A stretch of DNA of 64,000 nt from Rhizodiscina lignyota (Eukaryota): the NCBI GenBank assembly GCA_010015805.1, contig ML978122.1, positions 1,274,453 to 1,338,452 of the forward strand. Reading direction: 5' to 3'. A program made the position numbers and the translations under genes. Positions 532 to 51,772 of the stretch are shown one piece after another (the first letter of the stretch is position 1; each line of letters opens with the position of its first letter). The notes beneath the pieces were generated by a model. It saw nothing but the letters and a program-made list of their open reading frames with translations, had not been told where the DNA came from and did not search any database.

Positions 532-3500
532 ATGACCGTGAGTGAAGATTCCCTTTGTGACAACGTACCGTCACTGTATGTCACGTCATGAACGCTGCCC
601 ACTGAGCTCCGTGGCAAGCTATAAAGCGCTTACCGCCCTCCAACGACCACCATCATTCTTGCAACTTGTACTAAGATACTACGTTTTGCGTTTAGGATCA
701 GAAAATGCAAATCGACGACCCTGCTGCAGCTGCGGCGCAGCTAAAAAATGGCAATGCTGAGATCGACGAGGGCCTCTATAGCCGACAGCTCTATGTCCTT
801 GGACATGAGGCCATGAAGCGTATGGGCTCTTCGAATATCCTCGTTGTCGGCCTTCGCGGCCTAGGTGTCGAAATCGCAAAGAACATCGCCCTGGCTGGGG
901 TCAAGTCCCTCACCCTCTTCGACCCCACGCCTGCAGCGATTTCGGACCTTTCTTCACAGTTCTTCCTACACCCTGAAGATGTTGGTAAACCTCGAGCTAG
1001 CGTCACTGTACCTCGAGTATCCGAACTGAACCCATACACGCCCGTTATCGAGTATGCCGCTACCGACCTGTTGACCGACCTCTCTCACCTCAAGCAATTC
1101 CAAGTAGTCGTTCTTACAGACACCCCGCTCAAGACGCAAGTGGCTATCGCGGACTACTGTCACAATAACGGCATATACGTTGTAATCGCGGATACATTTG
1201 GTCTGTTTGGCTGCATCTTCACGGATTTCGGGAAGAACTTCACTGTCGGCGATCCGACTGGGGAGAACCCCAATACTGGTATCGTTGCAGGCATAGACAC
1301 AGATGGCCTGGTATCTGCGCTTGATGAGACACGCCACGGGCTGGAGGATGGTGATTATGTCACTTTCTCCGAAGTTGAGGGCATGGAGGCTCTCAACGAT
1401 GGCACGCCCCGCAAGATCACGGTCAAGGGACCGTATACTTTCAGCATCGGTGATGTGTCTGGGCTCGGCACATATAAGCGTGGTGGTCTGTACACGCAGG
1501 TTAAGATGCCGAAGATCCTCGACTTCGAGCCTCTTAGCCAGCAGCTTAAGAATCCGACAACCCTGGTGTCCGATTTTGCCAAATTCGATCGACCGCAACA
1601 GTTGCATGTTGGTTTCCAGGCCCTGCACATTTTTGCTGAGCAAATTGGTGCCTTCCCGCGACCGCACAATGACGAAGATGCCGCTGCAGTATTTAAGATT
1701 GCACAAGGCTTAGCAGGCGAGGGCGACGAGAAGGTCGAGCTTGACGAGAAGGTTATTCGCGAACTCAGCTATCAAGCTCGTGGCGATTTGAGTCCGATGG
1801 CTGCATTCTTCGGTGGCTTGGCAGCGCAAGAGGTGTTGAAGTCCGTTTCTGGAAAGTTCCACCCAATCGTACAGTGGCTCTACTTTGACTCCCTTGAGTC
1901 GTTGCCTACATCGATAAGCCGAACAGAAGCGCTTTGTCAGCCACTGAATACGCGATACGACGGCCAAATCGTAGTCTTTGGCAAGGAGTACCAGGACAAG
2001 CTGGGCAACATGTCCGAATTCCTTGTTGGTGCAGGAGCTATCGGCTGTGAGATGCTGAAGAACTGGGCGATGATGGGCCTGGGCGCCGGACCGAAGGGTC
2101 GCATCATTGTGACTGATATGGATCAAATCGAGAAGAGTAACCTGAACCGTCAATTCTTGTTCCGACCCGCGGATGTGGGAAAGCTTAAGAGCGATTGCGC
2201 TGCGCACGCCGTACAAGCGATGAACCCTGACCTGAAGGGCAAGATTGAGTCGCTTAGAGATCGCGTTGGTCAGGATACGGAGCACATCTTCAATGAAGAC
2301 TTCTGGACAGGCTTGGATGCAGTCACCAACGCCCTTGACAACGTTGATGCTCGAACCTATGTCGATCGTCGCTGCGTCTTCTTCCGCAAGCCTCTCCTTG
2401 ACAGCGGCACACTTGGTACCAAGGGAAATACCCAAGTTGTCTTGCCCGGTATCACAGAGTCTTACTCCAGCTCTCAAGACCCCCCTGAGCAGTCTTTCCC
2501 AATGTGCACCTTGCGAAGCTTTCCGAATCGCATTGAGCACACAATTGCCTGGGCCAAAGATCTTTTCCATACCTACTTTGTCGGCCCCGCCGAGACTGTG
2601 AACCTTTATCTCACGCAGCCAAATTACCTAGCCAATGCCTTGAAGCAATCCGGTAACGAGAAGCAAACGCTGGAGATTCTGCGCGACTACTTGGTGACAG
2701 AGAAACCACTTACTTTCGACGATTGCATAGCTTGGGCGCGCTATCAATTTGAGAAGCAGTATAGCAACACGATCCTGCAGCTTCTCTACAACTTCCCTAA
2801 GGACTCAACAACGTCTAGCGGCCAGCCTTTCTGGTCGGGTCCGAAGCGTGCACCTGATGCATTAAAATTCGACCCTTCTAACCCTACGCACTTCACCTTC
2901 GTTGAAGCTGGGGCCCGCTTGCATGCCTTCAACTACAACATCAACCCGAATGGTGTCAATCGCGATCATTACATCAAAGTACTGAACAACCTCATTATCC
3001 CGGATTTCAAGCCAGATCCAGGTGTCAAGATTCAGGCAAACGACAGCGACCCTGATCCGAATGCAAACGCGCCTATCTCGGATGAGGAAGAACTGCAAAA
3101 GATCGTCAGCATGCTTCCTGCGCCCAAGTCTCTGGCTGGCTTCAAACTTGAGCCAGTTGAGTTCGAGAAGGACGATGACACAAACTTCCACATCGACTTC
3201 ATTACCGCAGCTTCCAATCTGCGAGCCGACAACTACAAGATCGCGCAAGCAGACAGGCACAAGACCAAGTTCATTGCTGGCAAGATCATTCCGGCCATTG
3301 CCACGACCACTGCTCTCGTGACTGGCCTAGTCAATCTGGAGCTGTACAAGCTCGTTGACGGCAAAGACGACATCGAGCAGTACAAGAACGGCTTCGTCAA
3401 TCTTGCATTGCCGTTCTTTGGCTTCAGCGAACCGATTGCTAGCCCAAAGGGCAAGTACGTGGGGAAGAATGGCGAGGTGGTGATCGACAAGATTTGGGAT

Positions 3501-3848
3501 CGTTTCGAAGTGGAGAATACGACTCTACAGCAGTTCTTGGACGATTTCCGAGACAGGGGCTTGGATGTAACGATGGTGAGCTCGGGTGTCAGCTTGCTCT
3601 ATGCGAGCTTCTATCCCCCAGCGAAGGTCAAGGACCGCTTGCCGCTGAAGTAAGCATTTAAAACTTGAACTGCTACTATTTGTGAATTAATGCTAACGAT
3701 GCAACACAGACTCAGTGACCTGGTGGCGACAATCAGCAAGAAGCCAGTTCCAGAGCATCAGAAGAACATCATCTTTGAGATTACTGCGGAGGACCAGACA
3801 GAGGAGGATGTTGAGGTTCCATACGTCATGGTCAAGCTGCAAAAGTAG
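532..3848 (+). CDS. UBA1: Ubiquitin-activating enzyme E1; exons 532-537, 696-3649, 3710-3848
   Basis: Motifs [28 protein letters not shown], catalytic [24 protein letters not shown] intron 3650-3709 restores the C-terminus ...[23 protein letters not shown] intron 538-695 joins ATG ACC in frame to DQKMQIDD. Confidence 0.97.
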
Positions 3849-7645: not shown

Positions 7646-9895
7646 ATGGCAGAGCATACACGATCAAACAAACGCAGGCGAATGTCAGAAGGGGCGACAG
7701 ATACATCTGATGTGCCCAAAGACACAATCAATGCCCTCGACAAAAATGTAAAACCCGCAGAGAACCCATCCGAAGAATTGGATCAACCTTCAGAACAACG
7801 TCGCTCTGTCTTTGTCCGATCCTTGCCACAGGAAACAACAAATGAAGCCTTAGCAGAGCATTTCTCTCAATCTTATCCTATCAAACACGCTTTCGCTGTC
7901 CTCGACCGTCCGACGAAGAAATGCAAAGGATACGGTTTCGTTACTTTCACAGAAGCCGAAGACGCACAGCAAGCCTGTCGAGAGTTCGATCGATCCGAAT
8001 TCTTGGGGAAGACAATCAGAGTTGAACTTGCACAACCACGTCACCGCGATGAGGAAGCGGGTAAAACGGGCGATCCGGATCACACCGCAGCGAGATCATC
8101 GGGTGAGCACAAGGGGAGAGAAGAACAGCAGCCACCTCGACTTATTGTGCGAAATCTACCGTGGAGTATCAAGGAGCCTGAGCAGCTGGTGAATCTCTTC
8201 CGAAGCTATGGGAAGATAAAGCATGCCGCAGTGCCGAAGAAGCGGTCAGGCGAGATGATTGGCTTTGGCATAGTGTTGATACGTGGGCGAAAGAATGCGG
8301 AAAAAGCGATCGCGGGTATAAATGGCAAAGAAGTTGATGGCAGGACACTAGCTGTCGATTGGGCCGTGGATAGGGATACCTGGGAGAAGACAAAGGGGGC
8401 AGAAGTCGCCGACGAGGACGAGCCGGCGGAGCAAGAAGCAGCTAAAGATGGACTCGAGCAAGACGAGGCTATGTCGGATGCGGAAGAGGAGCTGATGGAT
8501 GTAGATGACTTGGAGAATGTTTCTGCAGACGGTGCGGTTTCCGCCGACGAGGACGCCGACCTGGAAGAGGCGGACGATGCTCTCAGCGAAGAGGAGGATG
8601 ACCAGGAAGACACAGGTGATGGCACCACCCTCTTCATACGCAATCTACCATTCGTATGCACGGATGAAGACCTGTATGACCACTTTCGACAATTTGGCCC
8701 ATTACGATATGCTAGGGTTGTTTTGGATCCTAATACTGAACGCTCTCGTGGCACTGGATTCGTGTGCTTTTTCAACAAAGAGGATTGCGAAACATGCTTG
8801 AAAGGTGCTCCAAGGGGTCTGGCAGTTCCGGCACACAAGCAAACCGAAGCACAAGCGAAGTCTACTTCTGTACTGCAAGATGAGAACCTCGACCCATCCG
8901 GCCGATATACTCTCGAAGGCAGAGTTTTACAAATTACCCAAGCTGTCGGCAAATCAGAAGCTAGCCGCCTTACAGAAGAGGGATCTCAGCGCCGCAATGC
9001 TCGCGATAATGACAAGCGACGGCTTTTCTTGCTCTCCGAAGGCACTATTCAACAGAGCTCGCCATTGTATCAGAAACTATCTCCATCAGAGATTGCGATG
9101 AGAGAAGCAAGTGTCAAGCAACGCCGAACGTTAATTCAGAGCAATCCATCCCTTCATCTCAGCTTTACGCGTTTATCTATCCGCAATATCCCACGCAGTA
9201 TCACTTCGAAAGATCTGAAGGCGCTCGCTCGAGATGCGGTAGTAGGGTTCGCAAAAGATGTCAAAGCGGGTGTGCGACAGCCATTGTCGAAAGAGGAACT
9301 CTACCGTGATTTCGAGAAGATGAAGGAAGCCGACAAGGATAGACGTGTCAAGTCGAAGGGCATCGTTAAGCAAGCTAAAGTTGTGTTCGAAGGCCGCGAG
9401 GGCACTAAGGTTAAGGAAGTCGATGGAGCAGGGAGATCACGTGGCTATGGATTTATCGAATATTACACACACAGATCGGCACTGATGGGGCTCAGGTGGT
9501 TGAACGGGCATGCGGTTGGGAAGAACGGGGCGAAGAGATCTGCAAGCATCACCCCTGATGAAGCGCAAGACCGGAAAAAGAGATTGATTGTTGAATTTGC
9601 CATCGAAAATGCTCAAGTCGTCGGGCGCAGGAAAGAAAAGGAGGCCAAAGCGCAGGGTAATGGCAGCGAAGTCGGCAACCGTGAAAAGAAGGATAACAGA
9701 GTTCCGATAAAAAAGCAACGATCTGGCAAGCGGAAGCGAAGTGGGAAGGACGATACTTCGGTAGATGAGCAACAGTCTTCGTCCCACAAGGACACAGCTT
9801 CCGAGACTAAGGACGACAAATTGGCAAAGAGAAACAGGATCATCGCGAAGAAGAGAGCCATGCGACGTACGCGGAGGAAACCAAATGGAGCTTGA
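7646..9895 (+). CDS. NOP4: Nucleolar RRM protein Nop4/RBM28 (60S biogenesis)
   Basis: Four RRMs (KGYGFVTF, RLIVRNLPW, TLFIRNLPF/RGTGFVCF, SRGYGFIEY), acidic linker, RLIVEFAIENA, basic tail; intronless. Confidence 0.93.
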   Translation: MAEHTRSNKRRRMSEGATDTSDVPKDTINALDKNVKPAENPSEELDQPSEQRRSVFVRSLPQETTNEALAEHFSQSYPIKHAFAVLDRPTKKCKGYGFVTFTEAEDAQQACREFDRSEFLGKTIRVELAQPRHRDEEAGKTGDPDHTAARSSGEHKGREEQQPPRLIVRNLPWSIKEPEQLVNLFRSYGKIKHAAVPKKRSGEMIGFGIVLIRGRKNAEKAIAGINGKEVDGRTLAVDWAVDRDTWEKTKGAEVADEDEPAEQEAAKDGLEQDEAMSDAEEELMDVDDLENVSADGAVSADEDADLEEADDALSEEEDDQEDTGDGTTLFIRNLPFVCTDEDLYDHFRQFGPLRYARVVLDPNTERSRGTGFVCFFNKEDCETCLKGAPRGLAVPAHKQTEAQAKSTSVLQDENLDPSGRYTLEGRVLQITQAVGKSEASRLTEEGSQRRNARDNDKRRLFLLSEGTIQQSSPLYQKLSPSEIAMREASVKQRRTLIQSNPSLHLSFTRLSIRNIPRSITSKDLKALARDAVVGFAKDVKAGVRQPLSKEELYRDFEKMKEADKDRRVKSKGIVKQAKVVFEGREGTKVKEVDGAGRSRGYGFIEYYTHRSALMGLRWLNGHAVGKNGAKRSASITPDEAQDRKKRLIVEFAIENAQVVGRRKEKEAKAQGNGSEVGNREKKDNRVPIKKQRSGKRKRSGKDDTSVDEQQSSSHKDTASETKDDKLAKRNRIIAKKRAMRRTRRKPNGA

Positions 9896-10987
9896 TGCTT
9901 AGAGCTTTGTTGCAGACAGCATAGAGCGGTGCACTGCTGACCAGTGACAACATGTCAATGCAGAGAAACTTTCCTTTCTCTTCCATCTTGTTCCGTTGAT
10001 GCTGTTGTGTAACAGTTGGTTGTGATTGTGGTTTGCTTGGAATCTTCAGCCCGCTACCCGCGCAGTAGCCTCTAACAGTGGCGTGCAGGAAATCTGCGGA
10101 GTTGCAGCACCCGAGAGCGCGTGCTTCGCTCAAAGTCTTCCGTGAAAGGCCCGGGCCGCAGCCACCTTCTGCAATGGAGATGATTCCGTTCTTCAAGGCT
10201 GCAGCATGATGCATGAGTCAAGCTATTCATATTCGAATATCTCCACTGGCACTGGCAGCACTCGCAGCACCACGCTAGCTCTGTGAACTCAAATGTGATA
10301 TATCATATCGGCCAGGATTTTCGAATGAGCAGGATTGGAGAATCAAGTCTTCTACGTCCACATTGACTTCACAGTATGGACATTCCAACCAATCACGAAC
10401 AGGTCTCTTCGAGCTCTTCGTCGGCGCAAGACGCTATCAGCAGAAAACCGCTTCAGCACATCTTCACCAAAGCTCGTAGCGCAGCTGATGCCGCTCGAAA
10501 ATGTCAATTTGTCGTTCTTCCCTGCTAGTTTCATTCGTCGATAACTCCTCTAAACGAAGGTGACTAGTCGCCTTATCTCAAGCAGCAAACGTGCGCACTG
10601 ACGCCATGGCTATCTGCCGCCCTTGATGGGCCTAAGGCGAGTGAACTTCTTCACTGGTGCTATAAAGATACCGTGGCTGTTATGATTTCAATGCATTCTT
10701 TCACTAAGTTTCTCATATAAGCGCCCGCTCCATTCACTTTCCCTATTCACCTCAAAGTTTCACTAGATACAGTACACGCGTCAGTATCTGCAAGCTTGGG
10801 GTATATTCACTCCACAACACATGCTGTTCGACATATAAGTACGCGAGCTCCTTGCAAAATCCTTCGATGCAGATATACAAGCGAAAAATTCCACAACAGC
10901 AGCTCACTAGTCAGAGATTCGTACAACAAGCCCCAAATCAAAGACACGGCAGCCGCACCTGCGCTCACGACACAAACGATCGCCAGC

Positions 10988-43146: not shown

Positions 43147-44931
43147 TCAAGTCTTACAAACCCCGAGCAATCCTTCCCATGGCCTCAACGTTATCGCGCC
43201 GGTTAGAGGCTTATCACTCGAACCAACTTCGTAATTTCCAGCTGCCCAGCTCTCGATCTTGAGCGCTGATGGTACGTTCCATTGGGACTCTTGGCCTGAG
43301 AAATTCAGGACCACAACGAAAGCTTCGTCTCTGCTCCATCTCTTGTACGCAAACACGTCACCTGCGTCGTTCTCGTCACCCAGCAGCTCAAAGTCGCCAT
43401 ATATGAAGACATCCTTGTGTTTCTTCCTGTTCTCTAATCCGCGCTTCCAAAACTGCCTGACCGAGAAGTCATTTCCTCCCGCTTGTTTTGGGGCCATCTG
43501 CACAGCAGCGTTTACGGTCGGATAGTCATCGTTGACTCGCATCCATGGCTCCACGTCTGAACTACAGAACCCAGCATTCGGCTCCTCTGTCCATTGCATG
43601 GGCGCCCTGCAATTGTCCCTTGACTTCTTCTGCAGCACTTCCATCGCATGCCTCCTCTTCTCTTCGTCGCCTGGATACATGCTCATCATTTTCTTGTAGT
43701 AATTCACGCTCTCGATATCTTTATACTCTTCCGGTCCCCATGTGGGTGGCACGTTCCGCATTCCCAGCTCTTCTCCCTGGTAAACGTACAACGTCCCAGC
43801 GAGCGTCGTCTGCATCAACGCCAACAGCTTCGCGCCTAGCTCTCGGTACTCATCAGAATCGTCGCAATACCGCGATACGCTGCGCGGGTTGTCATGGTTC
43901 TCGCAGAAAAGGCTGTTCCATCCGTCGCGCTCAATCATCAGCTTCTGCCAGCGGTTCATGCAGCGTCGGAGGTCGGAGACCTTCCACGGATGCAGCGCCA
44001 TGCGGTAACTCCCAGGCACGTTGTCAATATCGACGATCTCGAAGATGAAGATCATATTAAGCTCGCCCGCCTCTGCACCGACGACCTTCAAGACTTCATC
44101 CTCGTCGCGGACGAATGGCATCTCGCCGACCGTGATCGTATCGTACTTGCTCAGAACCTCGCGGTTGATTTCTTTCAGATACTCGTGTAGACGCGGGCCG
44201 TTGGCGAAGTATTTGAAGCCAGGTTGGTATTGGTGGTCTGGGGCTACGACTTCGCCGTCTGGAAACGACTGGACTTTCGATATGAGGTTGATCACGTCCA
44301 TCCTGAACCCAGATGCACCGCGATCCAGCCAGAAGCGCAGCACGTCGTGGACTGCCGCTCGCACGTCGGGATTCTCCCAGTTGAGGTCGGGCTGCTCTGG
44401 CGTGAAGAGCGAAAGGTAGTATTCCTGAGTCGCTTCATCCCATGTCCACGCCGAGTTCATCTCACCGAGGATCTGCGACCAGTTATTCGGCGGTTGGCGG
44501 TTTCCTTGTGCATCGAATTTAGGTTTCTTCCAGATGTACCAATCACGCTTGGGGTTGTCTTTTGATGAGCGAGACTCCTGGAACCATGCGTGCTCGTTGG
44601 AGGTGTGATTGACCACCAGATCCATCATGAGCTTCATGTTCCTCTTCTTCAACTCCGCTATTAAATTGTCGACATCCTGGAGCGTGCCGTATCGATGATC
44701 AATGTCTTTGTAATCGGCTATATCATAGCCCATGTCCGCCTGTGGGCTTTTGTAAATTGGTGAGGTCCATACTACGTCAACTCCGAGCTCTTTCAGATAA
44801 TCCAGTTTAGAAGTGATCCCTTTGACGTCGCCCCAGCCATCATCGTTCGTATCATTGAAACTTGCAGGATATATCTGGTACACCACGGCTTCTTTCCACC
44901 AGCGGTGCCTGTCAATGCCACTAGGCGCCAT
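43147..44931 (-). CDS. GH13 alpha-glucosidase/maltase (oligo-1,6-glucosidase-like), intracellular
   Basis: WWKEAVVYQIYPASF, DLVVNHTS, GFRMDVINL, TVGEM, ENHD, YVYQGEELGM; intronless, no signal peptide. Confidence 0.96.
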   Translation of the reverse strand: MAPSGIDRHRWWKEAVVYQIYPASFNDTNDDGWGDVKGITSKLDYLKELGVDVVWTSPIYKSPQADMGYDIADYKDIDHRYGTLQDVDNLIAELKKRNMKLMMDLVVNHTSNEHAWFQESRSSKDNPKRDWYIWKKPKFDAQGNRQPPNNWSQILGEMNSAWTWDEATQEYYLSLFTPEQPDLNWENPDVRAAVHDVLRFWLDRGASGFRMDVINLISKVQSFPDGEVVAPDHQYQPGFKYFANGPRLHEYLKEINREVLSKYDTITVGEMPFVRDEDEVLKVVGAEAGELNMIFIFEIVDIDNVPGSYRMALHPWKVSDLRRCMNRWQKLMIERDGWNSLFCENHDNPRSVSRYCDDSDEYRELGAKLLALMQTTLAGTLYVYQGEELGMRNVPPTWGPEEYKDIESVNYYKKMMSMYPGDEEKRRHAMEVLQKKSRDNCRAPMQWTEEPNAGFCSSDVEPWMRVNDDYPTVNAAVQMAPKQAGGNDFSVRQFWKRGLENRKKHKDVFIYGDFELLGDENDAGDVFAYKRWSRDEAFVVVLNFSGQESQWNVPSALKIESWAAGNYEVGSSDKPLTGAITLRPWEGLLGVCKT

Positions 44932-45335: not shown

Positions 45336-46184
45336 TCATAAGCCGAAGCCAGTACCCGTTGACTCTGTGATTCCTCCATCCACTACAAGCTCATGACTTG
45401 TCACATACCGCGCAGCATCACTGCTCAAAAACACAACCGCATTCGCGACATCGAATGCACTGCCCATATATCCCATGGGCACGTTATGCTGCGTGATCCT
45501 TCTCGCTACCTCACGATCCTCCTCCTTGTCACTGTGCTCCATGTTCTCGACGAGAGGCGTGTACATCAACCCGGGAACTACGCAGTTAACCTTTATGCCT
45601 TTGGACGCGTACATCACGCCCGTAGACTTGGTGTAGCGTATCACAGCAGCCTTAGCAGTGGCGTAACCAATTTGAGGCTTGCCGATGTACCGAAGCGCTG
45701 TGATGGAAGCGTTGTTTATGATCGAGCCAGAACCTTGCTTCTCCATTACGGGTAGCACGAGTCTGCAGCAGCGGAAGACGCTGTTGAGATTGAGATCTAT
45801 CTGCTTCTGCCATAGCTCCTCAGACATGCTGCCGGGGTCTCCGGGCAGCGTCGCGCCCACATTGTTGTACAGGATGTCGATTCGTTGATGCTTCTCCAGC
45901 ACTGCTTGGACGAACTTTTCAACGTCGCTCATCTTTGTCAGGTCCGCTGTCATGACATCACAAACGGCCTCAGGGTTATCCTCCAGAAGCCGCTTCTGTG
46001 TGTATTCAGCAGTACTGAGATTGAGATCGCATCCGAATATCTTGACGCCATTGTAGCTCAATATGCGGGCTGTAGCAGCGCCATTACCCCAGGTTTGCGA
46101 GTTTGGGATTCCGACTTGGCCTATTCCTGTTATCAAAGCCACTTTCCCTCGGAGGTCAGGATAGATGGGAAACCGAGAAGTCAT
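45336..46184 (-). CDS. Short-chain dehydrogenase/reductase (classical SDR)
   Basis: KVALITG..WGNG, DILYNNVG, catalytic YATAK, VNCVVPG, DVANAVVFLSSD, VDGG; intronless. Confidence 0.93.
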   Translation of the reverse strand: MTSRFPIYPDLRGKVALITGIGQVGIPNSQTWGNGAATARILSYNGVKIFGCDLNLSTAEYTQKRLLEDNPEAVCDVMTADLTKMSDVEKFVQAVLEKHQRIDILYNNVGATLPGDPGSMSEELWQKQIDLNLNSVFRCCRLVLPVMEKQGSGSIINNASITALRYIGKPQIGYATAKAAVIRYTKSTGVMYASKGIKVNCVVPGLMYTPLVENMEHSDKEEDREVARRITQHNVPMGYMGSAFDVANAVVFLSSDAARYVTSHELVVDGGITESTGTGFGL

Positions 46185-46706
46185 GACGAATGCGGATTTT
46201 TGTAGGGAATATTCACAGAAATAGAATCAAGCAGCTTGAATTGCGGGAAGGTGCCGAGCTTCTGGTCTTCGGAGTTCCAGCCGGACGGTGATAGAGAAGT
46301 GAAAGCAGATGAGAGAACGAATAGACACGCTCCGAAGAAGCACACTTTCAAACAGAGTAGAAAGCAAACCAAGTCCAACTGCCTTCATAAAGCGATATCG
46401 GACTTACTGATTGATTTGAGCACCACTCGGAGCCTCTCAATGGAGGTTCAAGGTGCGAAAGGTCTCGAGACTCGACCAAGTTCGGCAACTTCTTTAGAGC
46501 CCCGCAGTGCCCAATACCTGCCGTTGTCTGCTTTTCCGCTTTTCGGAGCATCTTCCTCCATCAAATTTTAAGGTCATTTGTAAGTATTTGATACTGGACG
46601 CTATTATCCTCGCTCACAGTCCTCATCTCTACCTTGTCTCCAGTTGCATCTCATTGAAATCAAGGCTGCTACCTTTCTCTCAAAGTCAACTTTTGGTATT
46701 CAAGCA

Positions 46707-47702
46707 ATGGTGGCCACAACGAAGCATCCTCTATCGCCACCTTCGTTAGAAGAGCTTGCAGGAGTCTTAGCTCCTGCTCTGAAAGCCAACTTTGAGAAGG
46801 CCTCTGTGAGCGTGGAAACATGTCCTGACCTGCGGAAAGGTCCCTTCTATCTAGCCGCTGAGGGGCTGTCTGGTGCAGAATGCATTGCCGACATTGGAGG
46901 CCAGCCAAACCTCTTTCCGGAACCGCGACTTGAGAAGAAGTACTCCCTTATGTCAATGCCAAAGGAGATGGAGATGAGCCCAGAGCGTGGACAGCTCTTG
47001 GGTGCTGGTGCCGGACCATTCCACGTTATCGGTGTCAACTGTGAGCTGGCTCCCAACCTCAGCTGGGAGGGCAGCTTCGACAATGTCAACAATTTAACGT
47101 GTTTCACCAAGGTCGACAAGGCGAGTGATCAAAACGCCACAATATGCGCTAGAAGCCCTACTACCGACTGCGCCCTGATGATGAATCTCTATGGCTCGTC
47201 AGGCCTGCCTGGAGAAGTTTTGAAAATTACTGCTCGCTCTCGCACAGGCAGCCAGAAAAGCTTCACCGAGTGCATACGCCGAACGCTGATAGAGAAGTAT
47301 GGAGACGCACGACCGATCAGCATAGGCGGCGCTTTCGTGATCAAGACGGGGAAAGCTCTTTTCCACGTCATGCCGGATTTTCCATCAAAGGAAGAACTCC
47401 CGTTCCAATCGCCTGAGCAACTCAACGACTGGCTGACGTACCATGAGTTCGACGCCCCGATTGTCTGCTTGTCAGTGTTCCATTCCGCAGACCCTGGCAA
47501 GAAGCTGGGACTGCGTATGGAGCATACCCACTCTTTCTCTGCTGAAGGCGGTATTCGAGGCGGTCACTACCACTACGACTTGGAGCTCAAGCAACATCCC
47601 GGGATTGAGGAAGTAGAATATGAGGCGTACTTCAACACGGCGAAAGTCATTTATCGGATTGACAAGCCCGAGGTCACGCTTGTAAGAGATCTTCATGATT
47701 AG
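46707..47702 (+). CDS. DUF1907 / C11orf54 (PTD012)-like zinc protein
   Basis: CPDL..PF.LAAEGLSG, GAGAGP, ALMMNLY, HVMPDF, LRMEHTH..GGHYHYD (Zn ligands), EYEAYFN.A..YRIDKP. Confidence 0.9.
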   Translation: MVATTKHPLSPPSLEELAGVLAPALKANFEKASVSVETCPDLRKGPFYLAAEGLSGAECIADIGGQPNLFPEPRLEKKYSLMSMPKEMEMSPERGQLLGAGAGPFHVIGVNCELAPNLSWEGSFDNVNNLTCFTKVDKASDQNATICARSPTTDCALMMNLYGSSGLPGEVLKITARSRTGSQKSFTECIRRTLIEKYGDARPISIGGAFVIKTGKALFHVMPDFPSKEELPFQSPEQLNDWLTYHEFDAPIVCLSVFHSADPGKKLGLRMEHTHSFSAEGGIRGGHYHYDLELKQHPGIEEVEYEAYFNTAKVIYRIDKPEVTLVRDLHD

Positions 47703-48674
47703 AGGTCTTCTATGCAACGACTTTGCTATGCTCCTATGGAGACAGCGTCGGCGAGTTGTGTCGTCTTGGTCGTCTAAGGTTGCCCTGATTCCCAACCCTC
47801 CGAGGTGGAGGAAGTGTCAGCGAATGGTGTGATGGTGCGGCAAAACATGTTCATGCTGGATCGACTGTTCTTTCCTGATGTTAGCACCAATTATTCTTGG
47901 AGCAGGCGCAATCAAGATTCAGGGGGGAAAGTAGCCGAGCTCAATCGAAGAGGCTCACCTGCGGTGGCCGTCCATCAATCCTTCGGAGGACGCACTCTTT
48001 TCTCATATCTAGACCATTACTCCGTGTACATGAATATATCGTCACGGCGGACGGAGGATCTTCGAGCAACTAGAATTTAGACGACAATACATCCCTGCAC
48101 ATACCTTATGTACCTGTGCTGCAGCGAACGGTCGCGTGATTGCGTCAGTGGCTGAAACGTCTCGGAACATTTGAAGGCCCGTGACGGCTCTCAGTCAGCG
48201 ACGTGAGGCTTTTGATCTCTCTACTTTGGCCTGACTCTCAGGACACTTCGGTGCTTCGTGATGCTGACGGCGAAGTGCAGCCATGAGTACACAGGGTCGC
48301 TTTCCCTTTCCAGACATTACGTTTGATTAAGCCGGATGCGGCATGGCGCGGAGGGTTGACAGTTGCACACCCCTGTCCCCCCGCGTTTTATTAGGTACTC
48401 TAAATGCGGGGAGGTGCCAAAGCTCCCCAGCGTGCTCGCGTGAGGGCAGCTGAGACTCCGTGCCCTCCTATTGCAGGAATGGTCACGGGCTGTTGCCATT
48501 GATCACGCACCTGCCCCGCACCAGGAATGGCCTCTCCTTTCTCCTGGCGAGCTGACTCTCTCCCTTTCCTTCTCTCTCCGTGCACTTAAACACAACCTCT
48601 GAGCTGCTCAAGTCACTATCAAGCTTCAATCTACGTCTTCAAGCTTCCCAGCTTATCAATCACACCACACCATC

Positions 48675-49475
48675 ATGTCCGCCGACACGCAAGAACCCCT
48701 CTCCAAGGTCGACTCTGCCATTGAGCCCGGCTCTCCCATCGAGAAGAAGATCAGCCATCGTCGAACAAGCAGCAGTAACCCTGATGTACACAACATTGCA
48801 GACCTCGGTAGGCCTCTTGCTTTGAGCTGTGTTAATGTACGCGCCCTCGCTGACGTCACTTAAGAGAAGCAGGGCATCGATATTCTGATAGCTCCTGAGA
48901 CACAGAAGCTGGGATGGTACGTACCTCTGCCAACTTAGCCTCGTTCATGTGCTGGGACACCTCAAGTGTATGTTGCAAGGCTGACCTGTGTCCTCTTTTA
49001 GGAAGCTGAACACCTCGCCTTCGACGATAGGCGAGCCAGACACACTGAAGAAGCCTCTCTGTATACCAATGGTCAAGAAGGTCGACCTGCACTTCCCTCT
49101 CGGCCTTGAGGTCACTGCGCGAAACCTGAAGGGAGTGACAATCAAAGATGCGCTGGACGCTATTCACAAGCAGTTCAAGAAGAAGGTCAGCAGACACTCA
49201 CCTTACCAGTCACCCGGATCTTCCGCATTGGTGCTGACATACGTAGGCTGATGATGAACTGGACGCACCATACCTCGCTGGCTTCGAATGGGATAAGGAT
49301 GAGTGCTATACGAGATTCGTGGTCCATCAGGTCAGTAGTTCCGGATCTCCGGTTCTTCTGCCGCCACAAATATACTGACTGTCACATACAGGCCAAGCTG
49401 CCCACCCTGACAGGCGGCGGATCATCAGGCTCGAAGAAGTCGAAAAAGAAGGGCGGCGATGCCATCGACGAGTAG
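48675..49475 (+). CDS. Conserved fungal hypothetical protein, ~5 exons
   Basis: Splices to ..IAPETQKLGWKLNTSP..VDLHFPLGLEVTARNLKGVTIKDALDAIHKQFKKKADDELDAPYLAGFEWD..; canonical intron signals. Confidence 0.8.
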
Positions 49476-50024
49476 TGAAGGACTACTATGCCTACAAGCC
49501 ACACCTTTTGCCCTGCCTGCGCTGTCCTGCTTTGCTGCATCTTGCCAGTATTCAGATAGACCTGCTCTTGCTTCTGCCTAACGGCGAAAAGGGACCTCTT
49601 ACTGCGTGCCGGAAAAAGTATCAAGCACAAGGGTGGCGTCCAGCACTTGTACGATTTGCTTCATCTGATCACCGAACTCCACCTTGACTGGCTCGGTCAG
49701 GCTGGAAGAACTACACTCATTAGCAAATGTGAAAAGAATTAATATTCTACCCAAAGCTTTTGCATTCACTCGAGCAGCACGTAGTCATGCCAACTGCACA
49801 AAAGACTGCCCATGCGTTGATCTGCCGCCTCTGCATTTGCTTCGCTGTTATAGTTGCCGGATTCGGCAATCTGCTCCCTATCAAACGCGGCCACGGCATG
49901 CCGAGAGTACCCATGCTTATTACAGGAACATGACTTAAATATTGAGAGATTGGCCTCTTTTTGCGATCTTGCTTCGATTTTAGATATTTCCTAGCCATAT
50001 ATTATTCCATTTATTCTTATCAAG

Positions 50025-51772
50025 ATGGAAGCCCGGGGCCGTATCCCACCAACCCTACCCCGCCAGAATCCTACCGTATCTTATTGGCACGATCCACTCG
50101 CGTCAATTGCGAATCTTCGGAGTACAGAAGAACTTCCTCAGCATGCGGACTATGTGATTGTCGGTAGTGGGGTTAGCGGAGTATGCATTGCATGGAATAT
50201 CTTAGAAAGAGAAAAGGGTGCGAAGGTTGTGATGCTTGAAGCGAGGACGGCCGTTGGAGGCGCTACGGGCAGAAATGGTGAGAATTTCACAATGCATCTA
50301 ATATTTCCTTTTCAAATCCAGAGAGATTTGTATCACTTGAGATAGTTGTTATTTTGTTCCAGTCAAAGTTCCGTTATATTCCATGTCATCAAGTCGATTT
50401 CCCCTTATCAGCGTCTACAGAATCGCTCTCTAGTCGTCCCTCTAGGCCATCAGTTTCGGTCATTTTATATCCTTTTAAAGATCATTTTCTGCTATCATCA
50501 TATTCACTATTTCTCCCCAAAATTCCAATATTGATAAATATACTAGGCGGCCACACAAAAGCAGCCTCCTACCGCAGCTACATCAACCACGCCACCGCCC
50601 ACGGCACCACCGAAGCAATCCGCATCGCCCACCTCGAAGCCGCCAACATCGCCGCGACCCACGCCTTCGCCAAGTCGCACTCCATCCCGTGCGAGTCCCG
50701 CCCCTGCGAGACCGTCGACGTCATCTACGATGCCGCGTCGTACGCGGCCGGCGTGCAGGCCATCGGGCGCATGCAAGCCGACATGGGACCGCACGACCCG
50801 AGCGCGCAGTACAAGACGTACGATGCCGAGAGCGCGAGGAAGACGTTCCTGACGCCGGGGGAGGATGTGCAGGGAGCGTTTGCTTATCCTGCGGGCAGTC
50901 TTAGCTCGTATAAGTTTGCGATTGGGATTCTGAATCTGTGTCTGGCGAGGGGTTTGAATTTGCAGACGATGACGCCGGTGACGGGTATCAGAGGCGCTAC
51001 GCCGAGTAGTGGTGTGAATGGTCGGTGGACAGCTGCGACTCCGCGTGGATCGATCTCTACGCCCAAGCTCATCCTCGCGACGAATGGGTATACCGCACAC
51101 CTGCTTCCCTCTCTTCTTGGCTCCATCGTGCCCTACCGCGGACAGGTCATTGCTTCTGCTCCCTCGCGCACGCTCGAATCTATCGTACCGTCCGGTCTAC
51201 CGACGACCTACTCCTTCATTTACGCCAGTGGCTACGAGTACATGATCCCGAGGCCTCACCACAGCACGTCCAAAGAGGTGCCGGCAGACTGCCAGGGCGA
51301 CATTGTCATCGGCGGCGGTACAGCGCGACTGCCGGGCGAAGGAGTCAGCGAGTTTGGGAACACTGACGACACCGTGATCAATGAGCTGAACAGCCCGTAT
51401 CTGCGCCAGACGCTGCCGTCGTACTTTGGTGAGAACTGGGGCGATGCTAAAGCTACGCCAGTTAAGAAGGAATGGACGGGTATTATGGGTGCAACGAAAG
51501 ATGGTCTGCCATTTGTGGGTGGGTGGCCGGGCGCTGAGGGACTGTGGGTTAGTGCTGGGTTTAATGGACATGGCATGGTGCTTTGCTTGAAGTGTGCGGA
51601 GGCGCTGGTGGGCATGGTATTTGGTGAGAAAGTTGAGGGCGGATCGTTGGATTGGTTCCCGAGGAGTTTCCTACTTTCGAGTGAGAGGGTTGAGAATGGG
51701 ACGTTTGAAGGGAGAGTTGGTATGAGGGCTGTATCGAAGGAGGAAGAGGGTAAATTCCAGGCCAAACTGTGA
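50025..51772 (+). CDS. FAD-dependent oxidoreductase (DAO/PuuB-like), PTS1 -AKL; intron 50278-50546
   Basis: VIVGSGVSG, LEAR..GGATGRNG|GH, ILATNGYT, WTGIMG.T.DGLPFVG, AGFNGHGM. Confidence 0.92.

Follow-up and report, generated by a model that had tools for sequence, protein, structure and literature searches.

What does a fungal relative of an animal sugar-acid decarboxylase do next to a dehydrogenase gene? The question is raised by a stretch of 64,000 nucleotides of the Rhizodiscina lignyota genome (NCBI GenBank assembly GCA_010015805.1, contig ML978122.1, positions 1,274,453 to 1,338,452 of the forward strand; the whole stretch is hereafter the window), which carries a gene for a short-chain dehydrogenase/reductase (SDR) beside a gene for a DUF1907 protein, a homologue of human C11orf54 (BKGD). 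An earlier note, made from the letters of the window alone, had described the two as an intronless head-to-head pair and proposed that they make up a co-regulated dehydrogenase and decarboxylase unit acting on a sugar acid. The arrangement is as described. Both genes are uninterrupted open reading frames (ORFs) lying head-to-head across a 522-bp spacer, and the N-termini of both agree with those of their orthologues in alignments. The closest relatives of both proteins come from Mycosphaerellaceae-like Dothideomycetes, with 74-84% identity.

Linkage across ascomycete genomes, which the earlier note had put forward as a check of its proposal, was found, and the SDR/DUF1907 pair is a conserved unit, not an accident of one genome. 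Gene models for the two proteins are adjacent in 12 of the 13 testable named species, which span three ascomycete classes (Dothideomycetes, Sordariomycetes and Eurotiomycetes). The two genes carry consecutive locus tags in Zasmidium cellare, Vermiconidia calcicola, Saxophila tyrrhenica, Fusarium decemcellulare and Colletotrichum karsti, and accessions are consecutive in all five species pairs examined (Dothistroma septosporum, Fulvia fulva, Aspergillus versicolor, Aaosphaeria arxii and Zymoseptoria tritici); consecutive tags or accessions indicate neighbouring gene models and do not give their orientation. The Phoma macdonaldii pair is adjacent by coordinates, and adjacency is visible in the DNA itself for metagenome locus L012, which encodes the very protein known from Extremus antarcticus. 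As a more indirect indication, nine Logan/JGI contigs (3.3-136 kb) occur with equal length in the SDR and the DUF1907 match lists.

The same pairing was seen in metagenomes. The set comprised 46 contigs with a DUF1907 relative, 30 of which were informative, with 1 kb or more of sequence preceding the gene start. An orthologous SDR gene (67-71% identity) lies directly upstream and divergent in seven of these 30 (L002, L007, L008, L010, L012, L035 and L037, of which L007 and L008 are the same sequence), across spacers of 526-771 bp. A DUF1907 tree of 75 rows was built, excluding partial loci of fewer than 250 residues and with its root on L036, the most distant row. All linked cases belong to three subclades within a single 50-row clade (SH-aLRT 90): Mycosphaerellales, a metagenome-only subclade, and a Fusarium/Pleosporales/Aspergillus subclade. 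A ...DLHD tail is present in all five linked metagenome loci with a visible C-terminus, and this SDR accompanies none of the outer DUF1907 clades. None of the four longer DUF1907 relatives is a fusion with an SDR.

Judged by its sequence, the DUF1907 protein is a member of the C11orf54 beta-keto-L-gulonate decarboxylase family by all defining residues. It matches PF08925 along the full profile (positions 1-285 of 285; 374 bits against a cut-off of 25) and aligns through residues 10-324 with the solved structure of human C11orf54 (1xcr, 1.7e-67), whose chain numbering is that of the human protein plus one, an offset used in the residue mapping. The HxH..H zinc site pointed out in the earlier note is present as H273-T-H275 ... 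H287, equivalent to human H266, H268 and H278, and H220 and R270 correspond to human H217 and R263. All five residues are invariant in 18 of 18 aligned fungal DUF1907 sequences. The protein ends in ...RDLHD with D331 as its last residue; a terminal D is found in 79 of the 120 best DUF1907 relatives, and the outer fungal clades end soon after YRIDxP and lack the tail. A 2025 study, cited like the other papers here from those parts of its text that were available, identifies C11orf54 as the decarboxylase that converts beta-keto-L-gulonate to L-xylulose, the reaction that the earlier note had mentioned (PMC12337341). According to that text, H266, H268 and H278 bind zinc, the substitutions H217N and R263Q abolish activity, H217 and R263 separate the enzyme from acetolactate decarboxylase, and the C-terminal Asp315 raises catalytic efficiency (PMC12337341). 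With the zinc histidines, H220/R270 and the C-terminal Asp all kept, the fungal protein has every family-defining sequence feature.

The tail itself varies in several metagenome loci. An in-frame stop lies inside ...ERD*HD in L009 (about 3540-3565), and L006, L010 and L025 carry one extra acidic residue beyond the terminal D (E in L010); a one-residue extension of human C11orf54 reduced its efficiency. A pattern scan of genome contigs found no bacterial DUF1907 relatives, and PF08925 was seen in none of 401 sampled genomes of one bacterial phylum, a survey that gave no signal anywhere, so that absence is not established by it.

The partner protein belongs, again by sequence criteria, to the classical SDR superfamily, with an atypical cofactor loop. 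Its domain type is adh_short/adh_short_C2, and not the CRYL1-type 3HCDH of the animal pathway. The orthologue group comprises 16 sequences from three fungal classes with a mean column identity of 77%. Residues S160, Y174 and K178, which we take from general SDR motif positions to be the catalytic Ser-Tyr-Lys, are invariant in 16 of 16 aligned sequences, as are R165, K169 and Q171 between the catalytic Ser and Tyr, and D53 at the end of strand beta2. An Asp in that position is presumably a signature of NAD rather than NADP, following the usual SDR rule; the enzyme may thus prefer NAD, and R165, K169 and Q171 may form an anion-binding pocket. The canonical TGxxxGxG cofactor motif is not present in the SDR, whose loop (TGIGQVGIPNSQTWGNG) reads TGIGQVGIP, an insert, and then WGNG. 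The same loop variant occurs in a SAR116 bacterial homologue and in the closest solved relative, 5jc8, a putative SDR from Burkholderia xenovorans (6e-60). That protein shares the ...G.G..G...WGNG loop and the R-x-x-G-x-x-Q segment before the catalytic Tyr, but is a bacterial protein of unknown function without a known DUF1907 partner. Bacterial context was available for two loci, one of which holds a close homologue (L047, 42% identity) without informative neighbours. Structure prediction of an SDR + DUF1907 complex gave no support and no verdict.

Co-expression of the two genes, on which the earlier note had staked its proposal, is documented for the Phoma macdonaldii orthologues. Pm_8155 (SDR) and Pm_8156 (DUF1907) are divergent across 506 bp and have the lengths of intronless genes; Pm_8155 has the TGIGQVG...WGNGAATAR loop, and Pm_8156 ends in ...QDLHD. 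Both are induced in infected sunflower leaf and stem relative to culture, together with the adjacent major facilitator superfamily (MFS) permease gene Pm_8157 (PMC10218939 Table S11; values in Table 1). All three belong to a set of 15 genes whose induction qPCR confirmed, at 21- to 2718-fold (PMC10218939). In the available parts of that paper both genes of the pair are listed, with no link drawn between them. Being kept together in many ascomycetes and induced together in the infected plant, the pair is probably a small acid-breakdown unit, and since the pair and the transporter are among the most strongly induced pathogen genes in leaves (PMC10218939), the substrate is probably an abundant plant compound.

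Three findings point to a two-step unit that combines an SDR reaction with zinc-dependent decarboxylation of a hydroxylated beta-keto acid: the genes are conserved as a divergent pair, they are induced together, and the active site is intact and of the BKGD type. Quite possibly, though we stop short of calling it probable, the two genes form a co-regulated catabolic module whose SDR produces the beta-keto acid and whose zinc DUF1907 enzyme decarboxylates it. The conserved pairing, the co-induction in Phoma and the BKGD residues uphold the unit proposed in the earlier note; its sugar-acid substrate and the role of the SDR are what we infer, and so are the cofactor, which of the two steps comes first and a promoter common to both genes.

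Under this proposal, both genes would be transcribed divergently from the one short spacer. The NAD-type SDR would generate a hydroxylated beta-keto acid, most likely 3-dehydro-L-gulonate (beta-keto-L-gulonate), by one of two routes. The first would be C3 oxidation of an aldonic acid, either L-gulonate (from glucuronate) or L-galactonate (from galacturonate), which, being C3 epimers, should by stereochemical reasoning give the same keto acid. The second would be to reduce 2,3-diketo-L-gulonate formed when ascorbate is broken down. The zinc enzyme encoded by the DUF1907 gene would then decarboxylate the labile beta-keto-L-gulonate to the ketopentose L-xylulose, which would enter the fungal xylitol/pentose route, and the SDR would take the place of CRYL1, the unrelated dehydrogenase of animals. 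Either the uronate or the ascorbate route would fit leaf induction alongside pectin-degrading enzymes.

Several considerations favour placing the SDR first. Fungi are reported to lack CRYL1, so that some other enzyme must make the keto acid (PMC12337341, available text), and the lability of this acid would reward coupling of the two steps. The NAD-type signature and the invariant basic residues near the catalytic centre point the same way, as do rotifer DUF1907-3HCDH fusions (PMC12337341, PMC12435205), in which DUF1907 is joined to the dehydrogenase of the preceding step (PMC12337341). These fusions resemble the fungal pair in tying DUF1907 genetically to a dehydrogenase, which argues for coupling of consecutive steps; they differ in being a single polypeptide with a dehydrogenase of another fold, while fungi have an adjacent gene pair. 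A wider version of the proposal, which we hold to be possible but doubtful, is that many filamentous ascomycetes run a short, animal-like uronate-to-L-xylulose route with an unrelated SDR standing in for CRYL1. Its source would be L-gulonate, L-galactonate (from the galacturonate of pectin) or ascorbate-derived diketogulonate, and its L-xylulose would pass into the existing L-arabinose/xylitol pathway. The module, to which some species would add a Zn2Cys6 regulator and an organic-anion MFS transporter, would be induced as the fungus colonises a plant.

A number of observations weigh against a module with the SDR as the first enzyme. No L-gulonate 3-dehydrogenase activity was reported in Aspergillus niger extracts in the consulted part of Kuivanen et al. 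(PMC4870679); A. niger is not among the DUF1907 holders listed. Fungi are described as typically lacking the CRYL1/BKGD/DCXR set (PMC12337341, available text), and the known fungal glucuronate route, so far as the accessible text of PMC13158570 describes it, passes through 2-keto-L-gulonate. The linkage is also incomplete. Tags of the two genes are 309 apart in Fusarium solani-melongenae, the single exception among the testable species, and the SDR is not upstream in 23 of the 30 informative metagenome loci. Four loci with a ...DLHD-type tail (L001, L006, L009 and L023) have other upstream genes, and neither the SDR nor the tail is present in L011, L013, L015 and L016; linkage of the pair has thus been lost repeatedly. 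The evidence for co-expression comes from a single study of a single species, and no conserved promoter motif was found in the orthologous spacers.

The main rival keeps the module and reverses its order: the SDR would act after the decarboxylase, reducing an alpha-hydroxy-ketone (L-xylulose or an acetoin-like compound) to a polyol, as DCXR and BudC do. We regard this as unlikely, yet as the alternative to be taken most seriously; the sequence data do not separate the two orders. The nearest named families of the SDR are ketone and diketone reductases, with levodione reductase at 3e-38 and the meso-2,3-butanediol dehydrogenase BudC model giving 168 bits against a cut-off of 270, and by this likeness a role after the decarboxylase fits equally well. 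None of the NCBIfam models scored above its cut-off for the SDR, the best named being those for meso-2,3-butanediol dehydrogenase, glucose 1-dehydrogenase and FabG, which tells against a firm assignment to such reductases. There is a bacterial precedent for the reversed order. In the bacterial butanediol operon, budA encodes acetolactate decarboxylase and budC an acetoin reductase of the SDR type. The operon resembles the fungal pair in placing a zinc beta-keto-acid decarboxylase of related fold beside an NAD-linked SDR. It differs in being an operon with the SDR acting after the decarboxylase, and the window protein has active-site residues of the BKGD type, not of the acetolactate decarboxylase type. 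Both DCXR and BudC belong to the SDRs, the title of a work cited in PMC4870679 also calls DCXR a diacetyl reductase, and acetolactate decarboxylase is a structural relative of DUF1907 (PMC12337341, available text). Human DCXR, however, is not among the 60 best solved relatives of the SDR listed. By the usual SDR rule, the Asp ending beta2 also speaks against NADPH, the cofactor that DCXR and the L-xylulose reductases of fungi typically use, although NADH-linked exceptions are known. The reversed order would, in addition, leave fungi, reported to have no CRYL1 (PMC12337341), still in need of an enzyme for making the beta-keto acid.

A second alternative changes the substrate. The decarboxylase could act on a beta-keto acid not derived from hexuronates, such as oxaloglycolate from tartrate, or an acetolactate-like or other hydroxy acid of plant origin. 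The Phoma transporter Pm_8157 looks by eye like a member of the anion:cation symporter group of the MFS, presumably of its organic-anion (allantoate/tartrate-type) branch, and such carriers handle varied organic anions. The DUF1907 clades outside the linked one lack the C-terminal tail and have other partners, so that substrates may differ within the family. The linked clade, in contrast, has lost neither the equivalents of human H217 and R263 nor the C-terminal Asp, and the retention of these BKGD-distinguishing residues favours a substrate the same as, or very similar to, that of the human enzyme. We rate a different substrate for this pair as rather improbable, somewhat below the reversed order of steps.

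It is very unlikely that the two enzymes tailor a polyketide, as their assignment in Phoma to Cluster 26, a predicted type I polyketide synthase (T1PKS) cluster with the synthase and a methyltransferase a few genes away, might suggest (PMC10218939), because the pair is conserved alone across three fungal classes, the polyketide synthase family is matched by none of the scanned ORFs in the window or in the flanks of linked loci, and Pm_8149-8154 on the synthase side, like Pm_8158, are not in the available table of common in-planta differentially expressed genes, while Pm_8155-8157 are (PMC10218939 Table S11). Equally hard to credit is inherited synteny without functional coupling: gene order is common to related fungi, outer-side neighbours vary by lineage and part of the linkage evidence comes from one order, Mycosphaerellales, but the adjacency persists across Dothideomycetes, Sordariomycetes and Eurotiomycetes while all flanking genes change, and the two genes are co-induced in planta.

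The literature agrees with the statement in the earlier note that no fungal DUF1907 pathway has been assigned. No published function or pathway for fungal DUF1907, or for this gene pair, was found in the articles searched and in the supplement of the Phoma paper, and searches by identifier returned no literature for the Zymoseptoria, Dothistroma and A. versicolor orthologues. What is new here is a known decarboxylase family with a non-orthologous partner and in a new host group. Compared with human BKGD of the glucuronate-xylulose pathway, the fungal protein shares the Pfam family, the zinc histidines, the H217/R263 equivalents, the C-terminal Asp and an association with dehydrogenase/reductase steps (PMC12337341). 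It differs in its partner, which is CRYL1 (of 3-hydroxyacyl-CoA-dehydrogenase type) in humans and, in fungi, an SDR in a divergent gene pair known from sequence. Sugar-acid catabolism in A. niger is similar in that its oxidoreductase-type genes stand in small clusters or as divergent pairs and respond to acids of the plant cell wall, and dissimilar in using other enzymes and intermediates, via 2-keto-L-gulonate and L-idonate, with no decarboxylase.

The glucuronate-xylulose decarboxylase was identified only in 2025 and only for animals, fungi being treated as lacking the pathway (PMC12337341, available text). If the proposed module is correct, the pair would be a case of non-orthologous displacement, giving a function to two widespread "hypothetical" fungal genes. 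It would also bear on gaps in fungal sugar-acid catabolism, namely L-gulonate oxidation and glucuronate transport; in the A. niger glucuronate pathway the L-gulonate-oxidising step and the glucuronate transporter are still described as unidentified (PMC13158570, available text).

Table 1. Positions of the gene pair, its spacer motifs and neighbours in the window, and of the Phoma macdonaldii orthologues (logFC, infected sunflower tissue versus culture; PMC10218939, available parts)
Feature	Position	Strand	Description
SDR gene	45336..46184	-	intronless single ORF, 282 aa; PF13561 E 1.8e-52, PF00106 E 3.9e-40
Shared divergent spacer	46185..46706		522 bp; presumed bidirectional promoter
DUF1907 gene	46707..47702	+	intronless single ORF, 331 aa, C11orf54/BKGD homologue; PF08925 E 5e-112
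TCGGAG copy 1	46269..46274	+	motif count in spacer
TCGGAG copy 2	46330..46335	-	motif count in spacer
TCGGAG copy 3	46427..46432	+	motif count in spacer
TCGGAG copy 4	46543..46548	+	motif count in spacer
GH13 alpha-glucosidase-type gene	43147..44931	-	uninterrupted intronless ORF; PF00128 E 9e-146
Short exon-like ORFs, apparently one gene	about 48600-49500	+	one matches DUF6699 (2.7e-07); between DUF1907 gene and FAD oxidoreductase
FAD-dependent oxidoreductase, intron-split	50025-51772	+	PF01266; 2.3 kb downstream of DUF1907 gene
Pm_8155, SDR	contig16 1201644-1202519	-	logFC leaf 2 d 7.5, leaf 6 d 5.8, stem 4.6 (PMC10218939 Table S11)
Pm_8156, DUF1907	contig16 1203026-1204000	+	logFC leaf 2 d 6.5, leaf 6 d 3.7, stem 3.6 (PMC10218939 Table S11)
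Pm_8157, MFS permease	contig16 1206156-1207824	+	logFC leaf 2 d 12.2, leaf 6 d 11.2, stem 11.0 (PMC10218939 Table S11)

The spacer was analysed for motifs, since the earlier note had drawn attention to its CGG/CCG triplets as possible half-sites of Zn2Cys6 factors and to copies of TCGGAG. The spacer contains 15 CGG/CCG triplets, against 9.0 in dinucleotide shuffles (P 0.0145). When the whole window is cut into 244 overlapping 522-bp tiles, however, these average 14.0 such triplets, and 42% of them have at least 15, so that the triplets are not special for this DNA. A Zn2Cys6 cysteine pattern was found in no frame of the 64-kb window or of the 46 metagenome loci; with the triplets at background level and no Zn2Cys6 gene within the window, the half-site interpretation is not supported. 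TCGGAG was found at the sites quoted in the note and is locally enriched, with four copies against 0.33 expected (2000 shuffles, P 0.0005) and 0.8% of tiles reaching four, for a motif chosen after inspection of the spacer. It is not enriched window-wide (38 against 40.6 expected), nor is TCGGAG/CGGAG enriched in the orthologous spacers of other lineages (6 against 3.6 expected, P 0.16), where it is thus not conserved. The window spacer and the other spacers have 20 8-mers in common, within the range of 8-22 in shuffles and hence without excess.

Among the metagenome loci, the otherwise diverged spacers of L002, L007, L010 and L035 contain an island of about 90 bp with 77-82% identity (about 7620-7715 in L007), centred on GTGCGGAGATCT; between L002 and L035 a 29-bp core alone is kept. 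The island may be a common promoter element of that metagenome lineage.

No further gene is conserved around the pair. The neighbour is the GH13 gene in the window, Vac14 in L002, L007, L010 and L035, and a transcription factor and an MFS gene in Phoma; an arylsulfotransferase gene lies downstream in L006, L007, L010 and L025. The GH13 gene adjacent to the pair in the earlier note is present, on the SDR strand 404 bp downstream of the SDR gene, and is uninterrupted with a clear PF00128 match, but it is not a conserved neighbour. Both it and the downstream FAD oxidoreductase were considered as module members and rejected, with relatives in none of the 46 loci. The rest of the 64 kb holds chiefly housekeeping genes (ubiquitin E1, Rrn6, a Cdc48-type AAA ATPase and ribosomal proteins) and a few scattered metabolic genes.

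A putative Zn2Cys6 factor and a transporter stand beside the pair in Phoma macdonaldii, and not in the window, where the only MFS gene is about 20 kb from the pair. The Phoma factor is Pm_8154, beside the SDR gene, in which a Zn2Cys6 cysteine motif was recognised by eye. In Colletotrichum karsti a weak Fungal_trans region (20.3 bits against a cut-off of 23) abuts DUF1907 and is joined to it in one gene model (P0243), and in Recurvomyces mirabilis DUF1907 is joined to Ubp14 (P0241). Both apparent fusions are probably merged gene models.

Other NAD(P) oxidoreductase genes adjoin DUF1907 in some loci, a recurrence that speaks for the proposed module. An aldo-keto reductase (AKR) gene, highly conserved at 87-92% identity, is immediately downstream of outer-clade DUF1907 in L020 (4990-6155), L022 (6574-7817), L029 (1166-1948) and L039 (3966-4748), and L040 carries a fragment of it; in L034 a different AKR (9428-10399, 32% identity) occupies the downstream side. 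L020 also has a classical SDR upstream of DUF1907. A second, unrelated SDR is encoded just downstream of DUF1907 in L002 (4570-5438) and L004 (2116-3054), and the same gene occurs in the partial contig L021 (1158-1924).

In the Cercospora-like locus L001, a DUF7924 protein (1819-3702, minus strand) takes the place of the SDR upstream of DUF1907. Three related loci, L026 (5748-7019), L027 (2-868) and L028 (343-1638), have a gene for a CobW/COG0523-type GTPase directly upstream of DUF1907; this family includes zinc chaperones, and the GTPase gene here adjoins the gene of a zinc enzyme.

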